DNA of 64,000 nt, from NCBI GenBank assembly GCA_019636375.1, contig JAHBXS010000002.1:149621-213620 (forward strand), read 5' to 3'. The translations under genes and the position numbers were made by a program. This document shows positions 2,512-13,005 of this stretch, one piece after another. Within the stretch, counting starts at the first letter, position 1; every line of letters starts with the position of its first letter. The notes beneath the pieces are model-generated. The model did not search any database, was not told the DNA's origin, and worked only from the letters and a program-made list of their open reading frames with translations. The DNA comes from Pirellulaceae bacterium. GTDB lineage: Bacteria > Planctomycetota > Planctomycetia > Pirellulales > Pirellulaceae.

Positions 2512-5166
2512 CTATCCTTCCGTGGTTTCTTCTAAAAAGTTCTTGATGACTTGTTCAATTTGCGAACGAATGGACACCAATTGACGACCATTTGTAATTT
2601 TTTGGCCGTGGCGATCAGTCACATAAAAAACGTCGAAAACTTGATGACCATAGGTCGATATTCTAGCGAACTGCACGTCCAGCCCTAATTCGAAGATTTT
2701 CTGCGTGATCGTGTAAAGCAGCCCGAGTTTATTGTACGCAAAAACGTCAATGATCGTGGCTGTTTCAACGGTTTGATTGTCTATTTTGACTTTGATCGCA
2801 GGGCGTGAAAGTTTAGCGGCCAAACTAACATCCATTTTCCAATGTTTCCGGAACCGCGGCGGTTCATTGTCAATTCCCATTGCAATTTGTTCGACACGAC
2901 TTCGCAGGTCCTGCAACCGCATTTCTGGGGTTTTAACGTGCTCTCGATCGTTAAACTGAAACCAATACCAGATCATCGAATTTCCCAACGGTTTGATGTC
3001 CGCCGATTGGGTTTCGAAGCCCATGCTGGCCAGCAGTCCTGTGACTTTGTAAAAAATCCCCGATCGTTTTCGCTCGCGTTTGGCAATCACCAGTTCGCAG
3101 GTTTGGTCTTTTGGAAGTTCTCTTACCCAACACAGAACTTCGTCACTTTTAGAATCACGCAATTGCAGGAGTTGGTTAGCGACTACTTCCGCCGAACGTT
3201 CGCGGCAATAATTCCATGGCAAGCGCTTTACGGACCGCGACAGCCATTCACGAGTCTCTTCATCCGCCCCTTTTTTGATCACGTCTTCGTAGACGTTTTG
3301 AAACCTCGGATCGTAACCCTCCGTACTCAGGTGTCCCGTGAGTTGCTCGCGAGCATGATAGAATAAAGTGGTCAACAAGTCTCTCTTCCACGGCGTCAGC
3401 ATACCTGGACCAACCGCATCAATGTCCGCCAAGGTCAACAGATAGAGATGCGCTAGCATTTCCGTCGTGCCAATATTTGCGGAAAATTCTGCGACCAAGG
3501 ATTCGTTCCCAATGTCGCGATGAAAAGCCAAATGGGACATCATCAGATGGTTGTGTACCAAAAACCGAACGGCTTCAACTTCCTCATTACTCAATAACAA
3601 ACGTTGACAAGTCTCACCTGCGATCCGGCGCCCCACCTCGCAATGTTCCTCTGGAAATCCCTTCCCCAGATCATGCAGAAGCAATGCCAAATGCAAAATC
3701 GACTTATCCGGCAACTTGCGATAGGTCTCACCGATGATCGTCAAATCGTTTTCAAATTCGGTGCAGATTTCAATCGCTTGCAGCGTGTGTTCATCGACGG
3801 TGAACTGGTGATACTCGTTAAACTGCAAGAGCCCCCGGGCGTGTTTGACCGCTGGAACAATCTTCTCCAAAACCTTCATTTCGTGGAGCAAACGCAAGAT
3901 TTTTGCGAGATTTTTAGGCTTTCCTAATAAACTCTTGAACTGCTGCGACATCTCCTCCGTCATCTCAAACTGCAGTCCCTCCATCGCCTCGCGAATCGTG
4001 ACCCAGGTCTGATGCTCAATATCCCGATTGAGGTCGACAGCGATTTCAATAAGCCGCAAAATTTGACTCAAATCCCGCTTCACTCGGTCCATCGCGGCTG
4101 GCAAGACTCCGACTGTGCGGTTGCGCACCTGATAGGTGTTGTCGATCTGTCTGGTAAATAGCGGTTGCAGAACGAGACCAGCGAATCCGCGATTGGGGCT
4201 TGAAAGAGACGAAAATTGATCGCAAACATGTTGAATCTGACTAGTGAAACGAAAATAGTCTTGCATCATCGCTTCGACCGGCAACACGCCTTCACTCCCC
4301 TGATAGCCAAACTTCTCCGCGATACGAACCTGTTCATTACGGCCTAGACCGTCTTGAGTCCGATTCGCTTGAAAGTGCAAATCGCAACGGACTCGCAACA
4401 AAAACTCCGTCGAAGCATGAATCTGCGTGGCGTCGGCTGCCGTGATTGCCCGCAGTCGACACAACTGGTCAATATCGTTCTCGCCAAAACGCACAAATCC
4501 CAACCAGCGAATCAGATGCGTATCCCGCAGTGCTCCCCGCGATCGCTTAATGTTCGGGCGGAGCAAATAGACCGTTTCGCCGTATTTGGTTCTTTCCTGA
4601 CCGCGAGCCGACAAAATGCCAGCGACCAAAGCGTCTTGGTTCCGTTGACTCACCCGTTTCAAACTATTGAGGTATTCTTCATACAACTTGAAGCTCCCCG
4701 CAAGATAACGAGATTCGGTCAGCGAAGAAAATGTTGGAGGATCCTTAACCGCAAACTGACAAACCTCGGCCGGCGTACGCATACCGAAGCCCAACGCCAA
4801 CCCAGTGTCGTTAATCCCCTGCGTTAGGCGCTTCGCATATTCCTTAATCGAATCGCTCATTTTCGGCGGGACAAGCATCAGCAAATCGACGTCGGAAAAA
4901 GGGGCGACTTCTCGACGCCCGCAACCGCCATGCAAAACAAGGGCCGTTTGTTCGTCGAGACTACTTCCCAAATCGGCCAAAATTGCCTGTTTCAGCCCGA
5001 TCAAAACGCTGTCCAGCAAGTCCGATAGCGATTGCACCGTCAGCCGTCCCGCCATCCCAGCATCGTGAGATTGCCGAATCAATTGCTTGCCGGAATTCCA
5101 ACGTTGCCGCGAGTCGACCACGTAACTCGGCAATCCAGAAGTGCCCGACATTGACGGCGATACCAC
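2512..5166 (-). CDS. glnD: [Protein-PII] uridylyltransferase / uridylyl-removing enzyme GlnD (884 aa). The GTG start at 5166 is less likely than the ATG at 5151.
   Basis: Nucleotidyltransferase motif GGCGRREVAPFSDVDLLMLVP, HD-domain motif HDLGKG, C-terminal ACT-like repeats. Lies immediately downstream of glnB. Confidence 0.9.
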   Translation of the reverse strand: MVSPSMSGTSGLPSYVVDSRQRWNSGKQLIRQSHDAGMAGRLTVQSLSDLLDSVLIGLKQAILADLGSSLDEQTALVLHGGCGRREVAPFSDVDLLMLVPPKMSDSIKEYAKRLTQGINDTGLALGFGMRTPAEVCQFAVKDPPTFSSLTESRYLAGSFKLYEEYLNSLKRVSQRNQDALVAGILSARGQERTKYGETVYLLRPNIKRSRGALRDTHLIRWLGFVRFGENDIDQLCRLRAITAADATQIHASTEFLLRVRCDLHFQANRTQDGLGRNEQVRIAEKFGYQGSEGVLPVEAMMQDYFRFTSQIQHVCDQFSSLSSPNRGFAGLVLQPLFTRQIDNTYQVRNRTVGVLPAAMDRVKRDLSQILRLIEIAVDLNRDIEHQTWVTIREAMEGLQFEMTEEMSQQFKSLLGKPKNLAKILRLLHEMKVLEKIVPAVKHARGLLQFNEYHQFTVDEHTLQAIEICTEFENDLTIIGETYRKLPDKSILHLALLLHDLGKGFPEEHCEVGRRIAGETCQRLLLSNEEVEAVRFLVHNHLMMSHLAFHRDIGNESLVAEFSANIGTTEMLAHLYLLTLADIDAVGPGMLTPWKRDLLTTLFYHAREQLTGHLSTEGYDPRFQNVYEDVIKKGADEETREWLSRSVKRLPWNYCRERSAEVVANQLLQLRDSKSDEVLCWVRELPKDQTCELVIAKRERKRSGIFYKVTGLLASMGFETQSADIKPLGNSMIWYWFQFNDREHVKTPEMRLQDLRSRVEQIAMGIDNEPPRFRKHWKMDVSLAAKLSRPAIKVKIDNQTVETATIIDVFAYNKLGLLYTITQKIFELGLDVQFARISTYGHQVFDVFYVTDRHGQKITNGRQLVSIRSQIEQVIKNFLEETTEG

Positions 5167-5215
5167 TTTCTGGCGATTTGATCAAAGCCCGAATCGCCCA
5201 ACAGGTCGGCTGTTT

Positions 5216-5554
<339 letters not shown>

Positions 5555-5621
5555 TCAAATTCCTCGCGGTAGATTCGCCCGATAGCAGAACGATTGTTTT
5601 TGTCTGATCAACAGCCCGTGA

Positions 5622-6209
5622 TTATAACGAATCGCCGTTTTTTTGGCAGGTGTCCTGCGGAGTGGGCAGCCACTTTTGCTCACGACCGCTCAAGCGAAAA
5701 TTCTCAAACCGAGCCAGCACAAATAAGAAATCACTCAGGCGATTCAAATAAACCAATTCATTTTCTAGTGCGTTTTCGGCTTTCAATTCGCGAACAAGCG
5801 TCACGATATTTCTTTCCGCGCGGCGAACGACCGTCCGAGCCCAATGAGCCAAGGCGGAAACTCGCCCCCCACCGGGCAGGATAAAGGCGTCCATTGGCGG
5901 CAACGACTCCTCCATGCGGTCAATGCCTTGTTCCAAATCGCTGATCCGTTTCGTTTCCAGCGGTACTCTGCGGCGGGATTGACCCACCTCTGCCGCCACG
6001 ACTGACCCCAACCCGAACAAATCCTGCTGGACCCGAATCAATTCTTCGCGATTTGCCTGCGAGACCCCCTCGGCCAACACGACACCAATCACCGAATTCG
6101 CTTCGTCCAAGTCACCACAAACGGTCACCGCTAAATGATCTTTGGGAACTCGCACCCCTCCCAACAAACCCGTTTCGCCACGGTCTCCAGTCTTTGTGTA
6201 AATCTTCAT
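5622..6209 (-). CDS. PduO-type ATP:cob(I)alamin adenosyltransferase (MMAB family). The ORF track extends to a TTG at 6221; the ATG at 6209 gives MKIYTKTGDRGETGL.
   Basis: The hallmark N-terminal motif MKIYTKTGDxGxT plus a conserved helical-bundle body. Confidence 0.85.
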   Translation of the reverse strand: MKIYTKTGDRGETGLLGGVRVPKDHLAVTVCGDLDEANSVIGVVLAEGVSQANREELIRVQQDLFGLGSVVAAEVGQSRRRVPLETKRISDLEQGIDRMEESLPPMDAFILPGGGRVSALAHWARTVVRRAERNIVTLVRELKAENALENELVYLNRLSDFLFVLARFENFRLSGREQKWLPTPQDTCQKNGDSL

Positions 6210-6525
6210 CGTTTTTTCCAAGGGTCTGAGCTAATTCGAAATTTCAACTGATCATAGTCGAATTTCTGAGTTAAGCAAAATGCGAGAAAGGCCCTTAGCA
6301 CAATTTTCGAGCAACTTGCCCGCAACCGGACATCGAGCTATTCTCATTTGGTGAAAAAAAGTAAAGGTACACGGAATTGTTGCACCAAGGAGGATGCAGG
6401 CTTGATTTAATGTTGAAGTTCAAACTTAAACTTAAACCTAAACCGTTCTTCAACAACGCCTAACTCCCTGAACCGTTACAAAAACAGCTCAATTCAAGAC
6501 TCCGATTGAACCACACCAACAACGT

Positions 6526-7002
6526 TTGCAATCCATGCCCAATCAAAACGCCCCCAATTCCCAACCTGAAATCGTCTCGGCGGGATTCTTGATCCTGCGG
6601 CAGTCCCCCGACCAATCGGTTTTGCTCCTCAAACATCCAGATCGTTGGGACATTCCCAAGGGGCATTGCGACCCCGGCGAGACGGAACTGGAAACCGCCT
6701 GGCGCGAGCTATTTGAGGAAACAGGTTTAAATTCGGAGCAAGTCACTTTGGTTCCTGAATTTCGTTGGGAGCATGACTACCATGTCCACTTGCGCGAATA
6801 CGATAACGAACCACGACTAAAACGCCTCGTCGTCTTTTTGGGGATCGTAAAAAGCGACCCGGAACTAACCCTCACCGAACACCAGGGGCACCGCTGGTTC
6901 CCCTGGCCCCCTCCCCTGCCGATCCAGGCTCAAACCATTGACCCTTTATTGTCTGCGGCCGTTGAATTCTGCGACGACCGCCCGACTTTATTCGAATTGT
7001 AA
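6526..7002 (+). CDS. NUDIX hydrolase (158 aa).
   Basis: Nudix box GHCDPGETELETAWRELFEETGL (GX5EX7REUXEEXGU). Confidence 0.85.
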   Translation: MQSMPNQNAPNSQPEIVSAGFLILRQSPDQSVLLLKHPDRWDIPKGHCDPGETELETAWRELFEETGLNSEQVTLVPEFRWEHDYHVHLREYDNEPRLKRLVVFLGIVKSDPELTLTEHQGHRWFPWPPPLPIQAQTIDPLLSAAVEFCDDRPTLFEL

Positions 7003-7007
7003 GAGAG

Positions 7008-7817
7008 TCATTCTGCGCGAAAGTATCGCGTCTCGCCGCAGGCGAACATTCCGCAGCGGCCATTGTATTGCCAACAGTCGTAACAATGCGGTGTCTTACA
7101 AGACACACAGACCACAACCAGACCCCGCGGTTGTTCCGCACAGACGGGACACCGGGCGTCTGCCGAAATCGCCGACTCCAGTTCACCGCAAAACTCAATT
7201 CCTTCGACTTGCGAAAATTGCATCAAGTCCACAAACTTGAGACAGTACCTCACGAAATCACTCAACTCCGTGTCATCCCGAATGAAACCCGAACGAACAA
7301 TTCGCAATCGTCGCGGTCCTAAGTCAAGAGCCACAAGTTCTTTCGGAAAACGGTACGTCATTTCCTGCAAATTCTCCAGCCATTGTCTGCTGAGCATCTC
7401 GCCAGCAACCGCAGGATCAGAACTTGCAAACTCGTAACTTTGCACCAGTTTTTCATCGAGCCCATCAACATTCTTGAGATGCTTTCGCGGCTTGGCAAAA
7501 TTCGGCCACCCTTTTGGAGTTACCGACAATTCCACGACCCCACGCGACTCGAAATCAAGTTGAAACAAAGTTCGCGGTTGCCGACCGGCAAACCACACTC
7601 CTTGATTCACCAACGTGACCTGCATTCCGCGATAGTCGAACAACAAACGGGGCCGCCAGCCAAATGAATCAATCCGCCCACCAAAGCGAACGGCCAGCTT
7701 GCGATACGTTGTCTTCCAACGCTCGGAACGAACGTGCCAAGTCAAAATGCCAAAAATCGCCATCGTAACGAAGATCGGGAAGGTCACAAAGAAAAATCTG
7801 ATCAACGTCCAGACCAT
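7008..7817 (-). CDS. Membrane protein with a C-terminal Cys-rich zinc-ribbon or treble-clef module (CPVC-x10-CVSC-x3-HC-x2-C-x6-C-x4-C). It is the last gene of the Ubl/E2/E1/JAB operon. The ORF track start at 7826 is TTG; the ATG at 7817 is more likely.
   Basis: N-terminal TM helix (FFFVTFPIFVTMAIFGILTW). An eight Cys/His cluster in the last 40 residues. A 35-nt gap to the upstream JAB gene on the same strand. Confidence 0.65.
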   Translation of the reverse strand: MVWTLIRFFFVTFPIFVTMAIFGILTWHVRSERWKTTYRKLAVRFGGRIDSFGWRPRLLFDYRGMQVTLVNQGVWFAGRQPRTLFQLDFESRGVVELSVTPKGWPNFAKPRKHLKNVDGLDEKLVQSYEFASSDPAVAGEMLSRQWLENLQEMTYRFPKELVALDLGPRRLRIVRSGFIRDDTELSDFVRYCLKFVDLMQFSQVEGIEFCGELESAISADARCPVCAEQPRGLVVVCVSCKTPHCYDCWQYNGRCGMFACGETRYFRAE

Positions 7818-7852
7818 TTGTTCCAACCCTTCGCGGAAGTCGATTAAAAGAA

Positions 7853-9148
7853 TTAGAGACTTTTCGATTTGGCGGATCGCGAAACGCCTTCTTCCATCAG
7901 GAGCATTTCATTGACCGCATTCATCCGCCTTGAAACCCACCACGCGGCACCAAACGCCGAGCCCAGTGCGATCACTAGTCCCGAGACTAAAAACCAAATC
8001 CCATACTGATTCACCCAAGCGGCCTCTCCCACCGAGCCTGGCCCCCCGCCGCGAGCCTCGATTTCAGCGATCCGGCTGTTTAGTGAAACCACTTCCCGCT
8101 CCGCCGCACCTCGCGCTTCCACACTCGCAGCCAAACCCTTCTCAAGTTCCCCAATGCGTACCAGATGTGATGCAATCGCGGCGTCGTTCCGGTCCTTCGC
8201 CAGACGAACCTCCCCCATCTGCTCGACCAACCGTTGTAAAGCATCGGGGTTTTGGACGATCTCCGCCAGGGCTTCGCGATAAGCCAACTTTTGAGCCTCC
8301 AACCGTTCGATGGTCGCGACGGCTTGCGACAACTCGTTGCCTGAAACGGACTCGGCACCAGTCGCCGGAAAAAACAGCTTCACTAACAAAGCGAGCATCA
8401 CCAAGAATTGCAGACCGAGCACCGCCACCACAGGCCAATCGGTTCTATGCTCCCGCTCAATGACTTGCACCGTCGTTCCTCCTCCGCTGGTCGCTCGACT
8501 CGTCGTTGTTCTCATTCCTGACTTCATGGTTTCCCTTTCGTTCAAGCCTTCGATATATTCCCGCAATTCTTCCTCACGATGACGATGAGCTATCAAAAAA
8601 AACGACTCGCACCGCCGTGTCGTTCCTTCCGTCGTCCACTGAAACCAGCCGCGATCGTTTTGACACGGATCAATCACCAGCGCCAAATCAAGGGGCTGAT
8701 TGAAAAAGTTCTGGCAGATAAAGTCATCCATCCCCGACAAAAACACGCCCCAACCTGGATGCGTGTGGTACCACCCGACCATCTTCATCGTCCCAGGCAA
8801 CCGCTGGCGATCCTCCGTAATCTGCCGCCAGGTGTCATGGGTGAACTTAAAACTCCCCCGCGTCGCCTCGTAATGCTGAGCCCGGATACTGTCCTCAACG
8901 ACGACAAACGGCACCCCTGCCCCGTCAACCAACTGCCGCCCCATCAACACGCCGCCTAACTCGACTTGGGTATTCGAAAAGGCATGATCCTCCAACTCCC
9001 GCATAACATCGAGGTCGACATAGATTCGCAAATCCTGCTCGTTCGCCTCGCCAACCGGCTCCACGGCATAGTAATGACTCTCGTCGGGCCGCAGACTTGT
9101 CTGTGGTTCGTTCGCTTGGAAATCGCCAAATTCAATGTCAGCGTCCAT
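7853..9148 (-). CDS. JAB/MPN(+) metalloprotease (deubiquitinase-like) with a C-terminal membrane and coiled-coil extension (431 aa).
   Basis: JAMM motif HTHPGWGVFLSGMD (H-x-H-x7-S-x2-D) with an upstream E (ELGGVLMG). The C-terminal 200 aa contain two hydrophobic helices (VVAVLGLQFLVMLALLVKLFF and IWFLVSGLVIALGSAFGAAWWV) flanking heptad-like coiled-coil sequence. The ATG overlaps the E1 stop by 11 nt. Confidence 0.85.
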   Translation of the reverse strand: MDADIEFGDFQANEPQTSLRPDESHYYAVEPVGEANEQDLRIYVDLDVMRELEDHAFSNTQVELGGVLMGRQLVDGAGVPFVVVEDSIRAQHYEATRGSFKFTHDTWRQITEDRQRLPGTMKMVGWYHTHPGWGVFLSGMDDFICQNFFNQPLDLALVIDPCQNDRGWFQWTTEGTTRRCESFFLIAHRHREEELREYIEGLNERETMKSGMRTTTSRATSGGGTTVQVIEREHRTDWPVVAVLGLQFLVMLALLVKLFFPATGAESVSGNELSQAVATIERLEAQKLAYREALAEIVQNPDALQRLVEQMGEVRLAKDRNDAAIASHLVRIGELEKGLAASVEARGAAEREVVSLNSRIAEIEARGGGPGSVGEAAWVNQYGIWFLVSGLVIALGSAFGAAWWVSRRMNAVNEMLLMEEGVSRSAKSKSL

Positions 9149-10385
9149 CGGTCGTCACTCCACCAGAACGCTTGCCGACACCACTGGCCCAGACTTTTGC
9201 CCGATCCCCTCCCAACTCGACCAAGACGCGACCGCTGGAAGATTTGACCTTTAAAATATCAAACGGGGGAACGCCAAGTTGCTCCAAACTTAACTTCGCC
9301 AACTCGCCCTCTCGGGAAACCTCACAAGTCGTCACCGGCAACCGCACCAAACCGCATCGGGAACAAGTCGCTTCGCGATGCGCGACACGCCCTGCCGCCT
9401 TATGAACGGTTTCGGATTCGCCACAAGTCTGACAGCGAAACTCCACCAAAAAATCGCGGTCAAGTTCCAACGCTTCAGCATTCAGCCCACAGTTGGCATC
9501 CACCCAATGAAATAACTGCTCCGCCGATGTATCCGCTGCCGAAAAATCGCTGGCAATGATCGGATCGTAAGTTTCGTGAGCCAGACAATCTTCTCGCCGA
9601 GGAAAATTCGTTTGGTAAAACTGGTTGGCATCGCCGTTGAAGACCATCCCCACTCCCGACCCCACATGGCGATCGTGCAGCAGCTTCAAAGCCTCTTGAC
9701 TCTGCAAAGCCCCGATCATTGACGCGATGGTCGGAGCCGTCGGGACCTTTCCCTCCTGCATATCCTCTCGTTTGAGCAATGGGCAACTGTATCGAAGATG
9801 CATCAAACGAAAATCGTTTTCGGTCATCGTGCATTCGTAACAGGCCCCGTGAGGTGGTCGATAAGTTTTTACTACTCCACTGATTTCTTGAATCCCACCA
9901 TCGATCCAAGGCGTGCCGACTTTCCAACACATCCGGTTGACCCACAGCCGGGCCTCCCGATTGTCCACGCAACCGATCACGACATCCATCTCGCGAATCA
10001 GCCCCAAACCAATGTCTTGAGTGACATCTGCTTCGTAACCGAAAATTTGGCAATCGCCGTTCAACTGGCGGGCCATTTCCGCGACGACTTCGGCCTTGGG
10101 CCTGCCACAATGCTCGGGGCGGAACAGCACGGCCCGCGAAAGATTGGATAACTCGATGCGATCAAAGTCCAGCACAAAAATCCGCCCCACGCCCACCAGA
10201 GCCAGATTCTTAATCACCTCATTCCCCAATGCCCCCGCTCCCACGACCAGCACCCGCGCTTTGTGCAGTCGTTCCTGGTCCCACCATCCGATCAGTTTCA
10301 GGCGGTCATAACGATCCTCCGAAATTTCGATGGGTGAATCCAATGCCGTTGTTGACGGCAAAGCTGACTCAGGGGGCTTCGGCAT
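9138..10385 (-). CDS. E1-like ubiquitin-activating enzyme (ThiF/MoeB/HesA superfamily) with C-terminal Cys clusters. The ORF track TTG at 10391 is less likely than the ATG at 10385.
   Basis: Rossmann/adenylation motif VLVVGAGALGNEVIKNLALVGVGRIFVLDFDRIELSNLSR. Zn-binding-like CYEC...C and CQTCG...CSRCG clusters. Lies between the E2 and JAB genes. Confidence 0.88.
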   Translation of the reverse strand: MPKPPESALPSTTALDSPIEISEDRYDRLKLIGWWDQERLHKARVLVVGAGALGNEVIKNLALVGVGRIFVLDFDRIELSNLSRAVLFRPEHCGRPKAEVVAEMARQLNGDCQIFGYEADVTQDIGLGLIREMDVVIGCVDNREARLWVNRMCWKVGTPWIDGGIQEISGVVKTYRPPHGACYECTMTENDFRLMHLRYSCPLLKREDMQEGKVPTAPTIASMIGALQSQEALKLLHDRHVGSGVGMVFNGDANQFYQTNFPRREDCLAHETYDPIIASDFSAADTSAEQLFHWVDANCGLNAEALELDRDFLVEFRCQTCGESETVHKAAGRVAHREATCSRCGLVRLPVTTCEVSREGELAKLSLEQLGVPPFDILKVKSSSGRVLVELGGDRAKVWASGVGKRSGGVTTDGR

Positions 10386-10397
10386 CAACAACCTTTT

Positions 10398-11081
10398 TTA
10401 ATCAATGAACAAGATTTCAGATTCTGGTTGGCGTGAGTCCCGCACGCGAACGACCTCAACTTCCGCTTCAACAATCATCACATCGTCACTCGTCGTCACA
10501 CTGGTAGCCGCGCCTAATGGAGCCCCGGCACTCGATTGAACCACTTCGGGTTCCGCACTGAGGAGATTCTTTAGGGGTCGCGAGTCAATCGGGAACGCCG
10601 ACGGTGTTTGTTCGGCAATCCATTTCGCCGCCTCGCGATGATAGGGGCTTGAGATATCGAAGTTCTTCATCCGAATCATGTCCCAGATCATGTTGCACAA
10701 TTCGTCCAACGTCAAACTCGGTACCCAATGCGTGCCATAGCCTCCCAAACAAACAATCCCGTTCACCGAAACGTTAGGATGAAAAATGGGAGTCTTCCAT
10801 TGCAAGTTCGGCATCATCCGGGGATAGGCCGCCCCTAATTCGATCCAGACTTCATGTTGTTTTTGAACGATCACGTTGCCGTATGGGTCCAAGGCGAGGC
10901 CGTTTCCAGAAAATCGAAAGCGATATTGACTGGGAGGGTTTCCCTTGGCGTCGGCGTGCAAGATCGAACTCGCTGCGACTAATTCCGAAATCGCGCGCGC
11001 ATCCGCCGCCAGCCGCCGATCTCGCGGCGACATGATCGAAGGTTCACGAGAATGTCCCAGCCATTCGGAAAGCCAACCCAT
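10398..11081 (-). CDS. E2-like ubiquitin-conjugating enzyme (UBC fold), 227 aa.
   Basis: Canonical UBC active-site signature FHPNVSVNGIVCLGG (HPN...G.ICL with the catalytic Cys). Upstream PPSQYRFRF segment is typical of UBC N-lobes. A 6-nt gap to the Ubl gene stop. Confidence 0.82.
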   Translation of the reverse strand: MGWLSEWLGHSREPSIMSPRDRRLAADARAISELVAASSILHADAKGNPPSQYRFRFSGNGLALDPYGNVIVQKQHEVWIELGAAYPRMMPNLQWKTPIFHPNVSVNGIVCLGGYGTHWVPSLTLDELCNMIWDMIRMKNFDISSPYHREAAKWIAEQTPSAFPIDSRPLKNLLSAEPEVVQSSAGAPLGAATSVTTSDDVMIVEAEVEVVRVRDSRQPESEILFID

Positions 11082-11087
11082 GACAAC

Positions 11088-11504
11088 TTAACCTGCCACA
11101 ATTTCTGGATAAATGATCAAGTGATGCCCTTCCTTGACGTCCGCCGCCACCAGTGTTTCATCTTCCAACAGGCGCCGGCCACCTTCCTTGTGGTCCAAAC
11201 TGTAACTCATCGGCTGACCGTCGGGACCAATCATTGGCAAGTTCATTTTGGTGATAATACTGGGAAGGATTTTTTTGACCGTCACCGTATGCGACACGAC
11301 CGCCTCGACACTCTTGGCTCCGGTTTGGTCTAGGAAAGTAACTCGTGTCCCCTGGCGTTGGCTGACAGATGAATCTTGGCTCATGGTGTAATCCTGTAAT
11401 TTGACGTGATGCGCGCGGCCTCTGTCGGACGGGTTTCTGGCACTGCAAAATCCTGACAACGAGGCTTGTGCCGCTATTCGCTCAAGGCCGGGAATTCTTT
11501 TCAA
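11088..11504 (-). CDS. Ubiquitin-like beta-grasp protein ending in a C-terminal Gly (...IIYPEIVAG). The start is probably the internal ATG at 11384, giving a 98-aa product; the track start at 11504 is TTG.
   Basis: Small protein immediately upstream of E2/E1/JAB. The C-terminal portion (LLEDETLVAADVKEGHHLIIYPEIVAG) resembles the last beta-strands of ubiquitin and ThiS-like folds. A terminal glycine is available for adenylation. Confidence 0.65.
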   Translation of the reverse strand: MKRIPGLERIAAQASLSGFCSARNPSDRGRAHHVKLQDYTMSQDSSVSQRQGTRVTFLDQTGAKSVEAVVSHTVTVKKILPSIITKMNLPMIGPDGQPMSYSLDHKEGGRRLLEDETLVAADVKEGHHLIIYPEIVAG

Positions 11505-11547
11505 GGTTTTTGCCGAATTGGTCCGAAAATCGCGTCACGCTTCTATA

Positions 11548-12105
11548 TTATCGCAGGTTTCGCTGATTTTCCCAGTCTTGCGCCAACAAACCATAAATTG
11601 CCACGTCGTAAAATTCGCCCCATTTTCGCGCATGTTTCCGTAACAAACCCTCTCGCAGCATCCCCAGCTTTTCGAGGACCCTGCCCGAAGCCGGATTACG
11701 GGTCATGTGGTGAGCCGTAATTCGATTGAGCCCCAGGTTTTCAAAGCCGAATTCGACGACCTTGGCCGCTGCCTCTGTCGCGACCCCGCTCCCCCAGTGG
11801 CTTTTGGCCACCCAGTAGCCCAATTCCGCACAATGGTCGAGCTCGCAAATCTCAAGTCCAATCGCACCGACCAGTTCGCTCGTTTCCCTCAAGCGGATCG
11901 CGAAAATGACGGATTTTCCCTCTTGCCACAAATCGTCATGCGTGGCGATCCAAGCGCTGGCCATTTCGACCGTGTAAGGGTACTCGATGCTCCGCGTCAT
12001 CGCGGCAATATCCCGGTCGTTAATCGCGACCTGAAGTTCCGCCGCATCTGCCGGCCAAAAAGGGTTCAATTCGAGTCGCGAAGTCTGCAAGGAATGCCGT
12101 TCCAT
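11548..12105 (-). CDS. GNAT-family N-acetyltransferase (RimJ/RimL-like), 185 aa.
   Basis: Acetyl-CoA binding motif region ...VGAIGLEICELDHCAELGYWVAKSHWGSGVATEAAAKVVEFGFENLGLNRI... Confidence 0.85.
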   Translation of the reverse strand: MERHSLQTSRLELNPFWPADAAELQVAINDRDIAAMTRSIEYPYTVEMASAWIATHDDLWQEGKSVIFAIRLRETSELVGAIGLEICELDHCAELGYWVAKSHWGSGVATEAAAKVVEFGFENLGLNRITAHHMTRNPASGRVLEKLGMLREGLLRKHARKWGEFYDVAIYGLLAQDWENQRNLR

Positions 12106-12312
12106 TTACTTTCCAATTGAATTGTCCAAACAGGAGCCCACAACGACACGCAAGTTGGTTCCGATTATGTCAATTGTAACCGCCATTCAAGCGAGCTTGG
12201 ATTCAAATCGCAGTTTTTTTTGGCACATCTTCGCGACTTTACCTAACCCGCACTTGGCTGTGACCTACGTTTTGGCAGACCTTCATTGATTCACCGCAAT
12301 TGACGTGAACTT

Positions 12313-13005
12313 ATGGACTACCTAAACAAATTTTTCGAAACTGTATTTCAACCCGCGACACCGACCCCTGAAAACCGGGCTTTGAGCGACCTGTCAAAGC
12401 ACTTGGAGCAGCGTTTCTATGATGACTTCGAATTGACCGACGCGGTTCGCCCAGGCCTCGACCTTTCGATCAAACCGACCCAGGGCTATCGGCACGACGT
12501 TTATATCGATCCCGATAGCAAATGCCGCGTCCCCGTGATCATGGCTTCTGCTTCCAAGGAAATCTTGTTCTCGGTTTTCATGCAACTCATCCAACGCCTT
12601 GGTCAAACCGTTGACATCGTTTTAGAAACTAGTCACCAACACCAAACCAACGGCCATATCGATCTTTATCGAGAACAAATGGATATGCCGGTTTTGTCGA
12701 GCGTTTTGTGGGAGTACGAAGACCTCCTGCTCAACGATGGTTGCACCGGCATCGCCGTCCTCAACCCACGCACGCCCCAGGAAGTCCAATTCGACGAGCA
12801 CAAACTCCTGATCATGTACGGCAGTCCGCTGGAACCGTTTGAACACGTCCTAGAAAAGAACGGCATCTATTGCAACGAAGACATTCGCTTCATCACCGAG
12901 GCCGAACATGTCCATTCCTCCAGCGATCAACTTTACCGCCACTTCCAAAACCTCCAAACTGAACTCGGCCTCGACCGCCCCGAAAAAGACCGAGCCGCGT
13001 ATTAA
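12313..13005 (+). CDS. Hypothetical protein (230 aa).
   Basis: Long ORF with coding-like composition and no recognisable motif. Confidence 0.5.
   Translation: MDYLNKFFETVFQPATPTPENRALSDLSKHLEQRFYDDFELTDAVRPGLDLSIKPTQGYRHDVYIDPDSKCRVPVIMASASKEILFSVFMQLIQRLGQTVDIVLETSHQHQTNGHIDLYREQMDMPVLSSVLWEYEDLLLNDGCTGIAVLNPRTPQEVQFDEHKLLIMYGSPLEPFEHVLEKNGIYCNEDIRFITEAEHVHSSSDQLYRHFQNLQTELGLDRPEKDRAAY

Follow-up and report, generated by a model that had tools for sequence, protein, structure and literature searches.

The only eukaryote-like ubiquitylation cascade of a prokaryote that has been reconstituted biochemically is encoded by an operon of Caldiarchaeum subterraneum, which comprises ubiquitin, E1, E2, a small RING E3 and an Rpn11-like protease (PMC5654768, PMC6043591). 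A comparable set of genes is found in a 64,000-nucleotide stretch of DNA from a Pirellulaceae bacterium (Planctomycetota; assembly GCA_019636375.1, contig JAHBXS010000002.1, positions 149,621 to 213,620), hereafter the window. It forms a predicted five-gene operon, tightly packed on the minus strand, which encodes in this order a YukD-like ubiquitin-like protein (Ubl), a UBC-type E2, a ThiF-type E1, a JAB protease fused to two transmembrane (TM) helices (JAB-2TM) and a TM-anchored RING E3 (Table 1). The JAB-2TM protease is the subject of this analysis.

As in Caldiarchaeum, the five functions are gathered in one operon, the E2 carries an HPN...C motif, the E3 belongs to the RING type and the closest relatives of the JAB domain are the Caldiarchaeum enzyme (CsRpn11), Rpn11 and CSN5. 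CsRpn11 is a soluble enzyme, and its PDB chains (148-228 residues) have no evident membrane module, whereas the JAB protease of the window carries two TM helices and a helical module that would be periplasmic. The RING protein differs by its N-terminal TM and its predicted TtfA/CCDC47-like domain. Furthermore, the Ubl is YukD-like and already mature, ending in ...VAG, while CsRpn11 processes a CsUb precursor (PMC6043591). Finally, the system described here is bacterial and chromosomally syntenic in Pirellulales.

The 2011 comparative-genomics survey of Burroughs, Iyer and Aravind (Mol Biosyst 7:2261) reportedly defined a class of operons composed of YukD-like Ubl, E1, E2, JAB and Prok-RING_1. 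The window, with its YukD-like Ubl, UQ_con, ThiF, JAB and Prok-RING_1 domains, is an instance of this class. A passage of a later article citing the survey places such operons in Actinobacteria, Planctomycetes and Acidobacteria (PMC4197634), and the same work is referred to in a passage of PMC3417536. In the accessible literature, of which the 2011 survey was not part, no description was found of a JAB-2TM-coiled-coil fusion, of a periplasmic topology, of a TtfA/CCDC47-like E3 domain or of the housekeeping synteny reported below, and nothing specific on planctomycete ubiquitin systems, YukD conjugation, DUF3137 or a link between TtfA and CCDC47.

The Bil (BilABCD), CBASS Cap2/Cap3 and Bub/6E systems also pair Ubl-conjugating E1 and E2 enzymes with a JAB/JAMM peptidase, which serves in Ubl maturation or in undoing the conjugation (PMC11601596, PMC10557695). 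Unlike the window, they lack a RING E3; their E1s occur in E2-E1 or JAB-E1 fusions or are of the IAD-AAD-CYS type, their JABs are soluble, and the systems themselves lie in defence islands or mobile elements; for BubE, a peripheral membrane association has only been proposed (PMC11601596). While the characterized bacterial Ubl systems are soluble anti-phage modules, the window holds a eukaryote-like five-component set in which ligase and deconjugase appear to be built into the membrane. Judged by its sequence features, all of which were found where they were tested for, the JAB-2TM locus belongs to the JAMM family and, in a membrane-tethered variant, to the eukaryote-like class of prokaryotic Ubl operons; it falls outside the Bil, CBASS and Bub defence families.

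Architecture and conservation of the JAB-2TM protease

The open reading frame (ORF) of the JAB-2TM gene overlaps the E1 stop by 11 nt. Its product matches the Pfam families JAB (PF01398; 3.9e-08, 33.6 bits, cutoff 22.5) and Prok-JAB (28.7 bits, cutoff 25), both above cutoff. A 100% identical protein from a metagenome-assembled genome (MAG) is labelled in the database only as 'Mov34/MPN/PAD-1 family protein [Pirellulaceae bacterium]'. An intact JAMM motif is present, with E63 and H128-T-H130-PGWGVFL-S138-GM-D141 (HxHx7SxxD). A homolog search of 5.8 billion proteins returned 693 relatives, and the counts given here cover the best 120 of these 693; the HxHx7SxxD motif is kept in all 120, and E63, H128, H130, S138 and D141 are invariant in an alignment of 97 sequences. 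The AlphaFold2 (AF2) model built on that alignment has a mean pLDDT (the model's per-residue confidence) of 83, rising to about 90-98 in the JAB domain. Foldseek comparison of the modelled domain with the PDB gave CSN5, Rpn11 and the Caldiarchaeum Rpn11 homolog as best matches (E 1e-11 to 1e-12), and the same three were recovered by phmmer against PDB chains (~1e-08), with no bacterial defence JAB among the PDB-chain sequence matches. Structural and sequence relatives therefore place the enzyme in the Rpn11-like, 'eukaryote-type' clade.

The sequence-only reading of this DNA had drawn attention to the 3´ part of the gene (7853-8460, minus strand, encoding aa ~231-431 of 431) and claimed that the protease is anchored in the membrane by a C-terminal module of two TM helices about 120 aa apart. 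Both of the hydrophobic strings that it quoted were located (aa 240-260 and 384-405, 123 aa apart), and the observation of two hydrophobic TM helices on a JAB protease is confirmed. Kyte-Doolittle 19-residue maxima reach 2.53 for TM1 and 1.99 for TM2 (threshold 1.6). Hessa-scale sums, computed without position dependence, are +0.19 and +0.53 kcal/mol, compared with minima of at least 8 for the soluble operon partners E1, E2 and Ubl, in which the hydrophobicity scan gives no TM-grade segment. In the AF2 model, the JAB domain (1-188) is followed by a helix (189-213, with R191 invariant), a disordered linker (213-237, pLDDT <50 at aa 213-232) and the TM1 helix (238-259). After TM1 come two helices (271-299 and 301-366, pLDDT 76-95), a Gly-rich break and a last helix (377-420) that holds TM2 and the beginning of the tail.

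This architecture is widely shared. The best 120 homologs come from Pirellulaceae, Mariniblastus and other Planctomycetota, from isolates as well as metagenomes and including the complete genome of Mariniblastus fucicola. All but one (370 aa) are 425-530 aa long, and, leaving aside the identical database copy, they are 36-58% identical to the query. The JAB-TM-helical-TM layout is found in 116 of the 120, with TM1 at about aa 240, TM2 121-171 aa further on and a C-terminal tail of 12-84 aa; such recurrence indicates that the two-TM arrangement is not a product of chance. Membrane anchoring of the JAB protease is thus borne out by hydrophobicity, AF2 helices and homologs. The fusion is also as unusual among bacterial JABs as had been suggested, since PADLOC JAB models span 154-168 positions and the soluble JAB paralogs of related loci measure 173-183 aa. 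Within the clade, the layout is the rule, which touches the reservation, made in advance, that homologs might reveal a common and unrelated domain arrangement; yet what recurs is one particular fusion, conserved as such, rather than a widespread module of unrelated kind.

Mean column conservation is highest in the JAB domain (0.74), lower in TM1 (0.48) and lower still in TM2 (0.33), the inter-TM segment (0.30) and the tail (0.23). A phmmer search with aa 200-431 alone against 1.84 billion representative sequences gave five significant matches, all of them C-termini of JAB fusions (one a gene fragment). The module is therefore fast-evolving and specific to this JAB family rather than borrowed, and a module common to other protein families can be ruled out. 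Among 27 module sequences, no Pfam family recurs (none in more than 5/27), and neither 4HB_MCP nor LemA is matched at E<=1. Known domains that had been considered for the module, namely the LemA partner of DUF3137, a 4HB_MCP sensor and a holin, obtained no supporting matches. The pinholin family Phage_holin_2_1 gives a sub-threshold match over the linker and TM1 of the query only (aa 213-260; 22.4 bits, cutoff 26); the domains precomputed for the 120 listed homologs do not include it, and it is probably compositional.

The segment between the TMs had been described as heptad-rich, with an Ala/Glu/Leu/Arg periodicity. Its helicity and its composition (A 18%, E 13%, L 9%, R 8%) agree with this description, and heptad periodicity is enriched in the family, where 28% of 116 loops reach p<=0.05 (5% expected) and 66% reach p<=0.2. 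A profile built from the 27 modules matches the coiled coils of P22 gp26, VAMP2 with its TM, GCN4, Lpp and ZapB, as well as 8QOX_B, a coiled coil followed by a TM. The segment is accepted here as a coiled-coil-like helical segment.

As for topology, the N-terminus of JAB-2TM is acidic and carries no signal sequence. For this reason, and because the enzyme must meet the products of ATP-dependent cytoplasmic enzymes, the JAB domain is placed in the cytoplasm; with two spanning helices, the inter-TM segment would then be periplasmic and the tail cytoplasmic. We infer an N-in/loop-out/C-in arrangement, in which a cytoplasmic JAB domain is joined by a ~25-aa tether to TM1, a periplasmic helical part of ~120 aa, TM2 and a cytoplasmic tail. 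Counts of Lys plus Arg around TM2 (0.95 before and 2.31 after, in the family) are consistent with it. A helical segment so placed would be unable to scaffold the cytoplasmic conjugation enzymes, and the earlier idea of a coiled coil tethering the conjugation machinery would have to be given up. Gln247, in the middle of TM1, is invariant in the 97 full-length and 27 module-only sequences while the rest of the module drifts, which suggests a specific intramembrane contact of this polar residue.

Taken with the catalytic domain, these features make the gene product a probable Rpn11/CSN5-like zinc isopeptidase (JAB/MPN+) of predicted activity and an integral protein of the inner membrane.

The operon and its conservation in planctomycetes

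The E1 is 51-65% identical to those of related loci. The E2 carries a canonical HPN...C active-site motif, FHPNVSVNGIVCLGG, and its best PDB relatives are eukaryotic UBCs. Its C-terminus ends in a hydrophobic motif, SEILFID, after a variable acidic linker. Such a conserved ending is shared by all the E2 and UEV-like second E2 (E2b) proteins, reading D[IVD][ILVM][LMFTY][FIVY][IL]..E at the corresponding position in the E2 and E2b of L007, L009 and L010, and it may be a docking peptide for a partner.

The Ubl is the best conserved component, with 72-91% identity to the window across loci. The listed ORF (138 aa, TTG start) includes a 40-aa N-terminal extension; starts in the related loci align with an internal Met, tblastn matches begin at most 6 residues after this Met in 6/7 related loci, and called Ubl genes are 94-96 aa long in five loci. 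The real product is therefore about 98 aa long. It ends in VAG-stop in the window and in 9/10 related loci, the exception being L007 (...VAGS). Since the Ubl already ends in Gly-stop, maturation is not needed, and the JAB enzyme would instead remove the tag from conjugates; its most likely task is deconjugation of the Ubl at the membrane and not Ubl maturation.

The gene that follows JAB-2TM had been read as a 'zinc-ribbon' membrane protein; it is actually a Prok-RING_1 E3. At 27.9 bits, the window protein stays below the model's cutoff of 29.1, but the model is matched by all 16 family members and the eight Zn ligands are invariant. A predicted model places a TtfA/CCDC47-like fold on the single N-terminal TM anchor. 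According to the Pfam text, bacterial Prok-RING_1 versions contain TM helices, in agreement with the N-terminal TM present in every RING partner of the related loci. RING proteins are the least conserved component across loci (25-41%). Exactly two components of the operon are membrane-tethered, the E3 and the deubiquitinase. The proposal that the conjugation machinery is possibly tethered along with the protease holds for the RING ligase, through a TM of its own, and fails for E1, E2 and Ubl, which have no TM. A promoter and terminator scan of positions 6400-12400 was uninformative, with counts not above those of shuffled sequences.

Eleven related loci were compared, from Pirellulaceae MAGs, Mariniblastus (including the complete M. 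fucicola genome) and other planctomycetes; five close loci had been gathered from a contig scan with one protein, and the set was widened by six look-ups. The same operon (YukD, E2, E1, JAB-2TM and RING) is present in 9/11. In L001, YukD, E2, E1 and JAB-2TM are found and the contig ends before the expected RING position. L010 has no full operon and retains only JAB-2TM and a UEV-like E2b, beside an ammonium transporter gene. The gene order GNAT-Ubl-E2-E1-JAB2TM-RING-NUDIX-CobAT-PII-GlnD recurs in divergent genomes, often with the flanks included and even between loci whose JABs share only ~40% identity. Both this synteny and the degree to which the tag is conserved, reminiscent of ubiquitin, speak for a cellular function passed on by vertical descent, and we regard the operon as a likely case of a eukaryote-like conjugation system of ubiquitin type that Pirellulales planctomycetes have inherited vertically.

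An expanded version of the operon occurs in L005, L007 and L009. In these loci, an additional JAB, soluble and 173-183 aa long, stands between E2 and E1, and the JAB-2TM gene is followed by a second E2 in which HPN is kept and the catalytic Cys is replaced by Lys, Ser or Ala (UEV-like). Two TM-RING genes are found in L007 and L009, and the L005 contig stops just past the second E2.

Proposed mechanism and alternative explanations

It is proposed that the operon carries out a membrane-confined tagging by Ubl, reversed by JAB-2TM. Soluble E1 and E2 would charge the Ubl, whose C-terminal Gly is free from the start and which needs no processing. The RING E3, held by its N-terminal TM, would draw the E2~Ubl to the inner membrane, on its cytoplasmic side, where the TtfA/CCDC47-like domain of the E3 would recognise clients and the Ubl would be conjugated onto membrane or membrane-proximal proteins. 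JAB-2TM, moving on its flexible ~25-aa tether over the same surface, would take the Ubl off again, in editing or recycling. The two TMs and the periplasmic helical module would act mainly as an anchor and as an element for oligomerisation or spacing, with the TM1 Gln possibly making an intramembrane contact. Tagging is probably located at the inner membrane, and a probability of about 0.6 is given to the full mechanism.

Several observations weigh against this proposal. The heptad (3.5-residue) periodicity of the window sequence itself is only suggestive and not significant (p about 0.08 against shuffles). The two AF2 helices between the TMs are unequal (29 and 66 aa), and the monomer forms no simple hairpin back to the membrane. 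Around TM1, Lys plus Arg counts show no bias in the family (1.47 and 1.40); the positive-inside bias is modest overall. The TtfA/CCDC47 resemblance of the E3 is that of a predicted model from a shallow alignment (16 sequences). Finally, no substrate, unfoldase or protease partner, or activity is known for any member of the JAB-2TM family.

If the mechanism were true, a spatially confined and reversible ubiquitin-type tagging at the membrane would exist in bacteria. In eukaryotes, reversible ubiquitin tagging at membranes is central to endoplasmic reticulum (ER)-associated degradation (ERAD) and to the down-regulation of receptors. The bacterial operon is stable on the chromosome across a whole planctomycete order, and it would then offer an experimentally tractable model, because cultured relatives such as M. 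fucicola carry it. Its importance is limited, since the operon class has been catalogued since 2011 and all that goes beyond architecture, conservation and predicted folds is inferred. This membrane-confined ubiquitin-type system is well conserved, uncharacterised and worth experiment, and in kind it is no surprise to specialists.

A more far-reaching explanation would see in the operon a housekeeping ubiquitin-type system of Pirellulales for the inner membrane, similar to ERAD or MARCH, with the E3 recognising polytopic clients through its TtfA/CCDC47-like domain and the periplasmic coiled coil making tag removal dependent on the state of the envelope. Eukaryotic membranes have ubiquitin machinery of this kind, with the ERAD RING ligases Hrd1 and Doa10/MARCH6 and the TM-anchored deubiquitinases USP19 and USP30. 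As an analogy only, the bacterial operon shares with it a membrane-fixed RING E3 and deubiquitinase, cytosolic catalytic domains and soluble E1, E2 and tag. However, the eukaryotic TM-anchored deubiquitinases are USP-type cysteine proteases and not JAMM enzymes, the ERAD ligases are polytopic, and a retrotranslocation or unfoldase partner is not evident in the window operon. CCDC47 is a subunit of the PAT complex of the ER multipass translocon (PDB 7TUT), and TtfA is a mycobacterial accessory factor of MmpL3 (PDB 6T84; PMC6593404). Their likeness is to the partner E3 and not to the JAB protein, amounts to 9-12% identity through a predicted model, and involves proteins that have no RING. The housekeeping membrane system as a whole is considered unlikely; if true, it would be the first bacterial ubiquitination pathway directed at the membrane and outside defence, and its protease would be the first JAMM deubiquitinase of transmembrane type.

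JAB-2TM could also be a transmembrane sensor, in which a periplasmic helical domain, as in the four-helix bundles of chemoreceptors and histidine kinases, switches the JAB enzyme in response to an envelope signal. Two TMs around an all-helical extracytoplasmic segment of 121-171 aa are the layout of many bacterial sensors, the module is kept in nearly all the best homologs, and the invariant polar Gln of TM1 could serve signalling or helix packing. Against this, the inter-TM segment is the least conserved part of the protein save the tail, with few conserved Leu, a variable length and no motif resembling a ligand-binding site, and no member matches 4HB_MCP or another Pfam sensor family. Moreover, the disordered linker that joins JAB to TM1, with no HAMP-like transmitter, would be a poor route for conformational signalling, and a sensor role seems doubtful.

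The weak conservation and variable length of the inter-TM segment and tail, together with the absence of a recognisable domain family, would fit a merely passive anchor, in which the two TMs do no more than keep the protease in place and the helical segment, a spacer without function, drifts freely. A single TM would do for this purpose, yet two TMs and a helical segment of at least 121 aa are maintained in 116/120 homologs despite their divergence. The helical, coiled-coil character and a few Leu positions are conserved and Gln247 is invariant, which makes a pure spacer rather improbable.

The likeness to membrane-associated sensors or effectors of defence systems, which the sequence-only reading had also put forward, found no support. 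An anti-phage or conflict system like Bil, CBASS Cap2/Cap3 or Bub/6E, with the two-TM module as a membrane sensor or membrane-disrupting effector, could be expected from the fact that bacterial Ubl/E1/E2/JAB operons of known function are mostly anti-phage (PMC11601596, PMC10557695); generic PADLOC JAB and E1-E2 models give weak matches, and the pinholin match lies over the TM1 region. However, no system-specific PADLOC match was obtained, the weak JAB and E1 matches being at the level of generic domains, with none for Ubl, E2 or RING. The best BilD match (31 bits) covers the E1 core only, matches to NCBIfam 6A-MBL cap2_3 reach 22 and 44 bits against a cutoff of 320, and NCBIfam has no family for any operon component, sub-threshold ThiF/MoeB-type models aside. 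E1 and E2 are separate, eukaryote-like and accompanied by a RING E3, with no BubE, unlike Bil, CBASS and Bub (PMC11601596). The flanks are housekeeping genes (GNAT, NUDIX, CobAT, P-II and GlnD) syntenic across genera, the Ubl is highly conserved across loci, the guanine-plus-cytosine content is unremarkable, and the holin match does not recur in the precomputed domains of the homologs. By tblastn, no phage record and one plasmid record (JAB domain only) were found, the JAB-2TM fusion being absent from both collections. A defence island is rejected on the grounds of synteny, of the model searches and of this absence from phage and plasmid collections, and a defence function in the wider sense is very unlikely.

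A fusion of two genes by sequencing or assembly error, or the mistaking of buried soluble helices for TMs, has only the unusual length for a JAB protein in its favour and can be rejected, as far as sequence data go, as next to impossible, with uninterrupted ORFs of the same layout in 120 independent clusters, a complete genome among them, hydrophobicity in the TM range and far from that of the soluble operon partners, and an AF2 model that does not pack the TM helices on the JAB domain and leaves a disordered linker between them.

The first interpretation of the JAB fusion is thus partly supported: the anchored membrane-tethered protease stands, and the defence analogy and the cytoplasmic scaffold are not supported.

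Neighbouring genes and other observations in the window

Table 1. Position in the window of the JAB-2TM gene, its parts, its operon partners and other features mentioned in the text.
Feature	Position (nt)	Strand	Basis or remark
JAB/MPN+ protease gene, whole (431 aa)	7853..9148	-	ORF; Pfam JAB and Prok-JAB
JAB (MPN+) catalytic domain, aa 1-188, predicted cytoplasmic	8585..9148	-	JAMM motif, AF2, Foldseek
Helix after JAB domain, aa 189-213	8510..8584	-	AF2 helix 189-213; mean column conservation 0.56
Flexible Ser/Thr/Gly-rich linker from catalytic part to membrane, aa 214-237	8438..8509	-	AF2
TM1, aa 238-260	8369..8437	-	Kyte-Doolittle, Hessa sum, AF2 helix 238-259
Gln247, mid-TM1	8408-8410	-	invariant
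Sub-threshold Phage_holin_2_1 match, aa 213-260	8369-8509	-	Pfam
All-helical Ala/Glu/Leu-rich coiled-coil-like segment, aa 261-380, predicted periplasmic	8009..8368	-	AF2, periodicity, profile matches
TM2, aa 381-405, Trp residues on flanks	7934..8008	-	Kyte-Doolittle, Hessa sum, AF2 helix 377-420
Short basic/acidic C-terminal tail, aa 406-431 and stop, predicted cytoplasmic	7853..7933	-	SRRMNAVNEML...SKSL
RING E3 (272 aa)	7008..7826	-	Prok-RING_1
RING E3, N-terminal TM, aa 5-30	7737-7814	-	
RING E3, TtfA/CCDC47-like alpha/beta domain, aa ~49-206, predicted cytoplasmic	7209-7682	-	predicted model
RING E3, C-terminal RING, aa 224-265	7032-7157	-	
E1, ThiF-type adenylating enzyme (417 aa), soluble	9138..10391	-	Pfam ThiF 1.6e-57, 194.8 bits
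E2, UBC fold (227 aa), soluble	10398..11081	-	Pfam UQ_con 5.6e-13, 49.1 bits
E2, C-terminal hydrophobic motif	10398-10421	-	
YukD-like Ubl (98 aa from internal Met)	11088..11384	-	Pfam YukD 1e-13, 52 bits; end ...YPEIVAG-stop
N-terminal extension of listed Ubl ORF (40 aa)	11385-11504	-	
GNAT (Acetyltransf_3, RimJ/RimL-type), directly upstream of Ubl gene	11548..12105	-	Pfam
NUDIX, cobalamin adenosyltransferase, P-II and GlnD genes	2512-7002		
ORF of 230 aa, divergent from operon	12313-13005	+	
Protein of 411 aa	13804-15039	+	
DUF3686 protein of 1792 aa	25565-30943	-	
ORF of 686 aa	30971-33031	-	no Pfam match

The GNAT gene upstream of the Ubl gene occupies the same position in L001, L002, L004, L006, L008 and L011, and N-acetylation may conceivably be connected with the tagging system. 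Downstream of the operon, the genes for NUDIX, cobalamin adenosyltransferase (CobAT), P-II and GlnD persist in L002, L004, L008, L009, L010 and L011, and an ammonium transporter gene is adjacent to the operon in L009 as well as in L010. These neighbours could represent plain vertical synteny or hint at a link with nitrogen regulation at the membrane.

Beyond the GNAT gene, and divergent from the operon, lies a 230-aa ORF that is 55-87% identical across loci and better conserved than E1, E2, JAB or RING. It is syntenic in 6/7 loci tested (absent from L003), including loci that have no GNAT, and has no match in Pfam, NCBIfam or PDB sequences. This ORF may be a functional partner of the operon.

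Elsewhere in the window, a 1792-aa protein combines DUF3686 ('ATPase involved in DNA repair', E 1e-180), DUF7902 and an AAA domain; the 686-aa ORF lies 27 nt upstream of its gene on the same strand. Finally, a 411-aa protein carries several EF-hand motifs and an iodothyronine-deiodinase/AhpC-like thioredoxin-fold domain, an unusual pairing.

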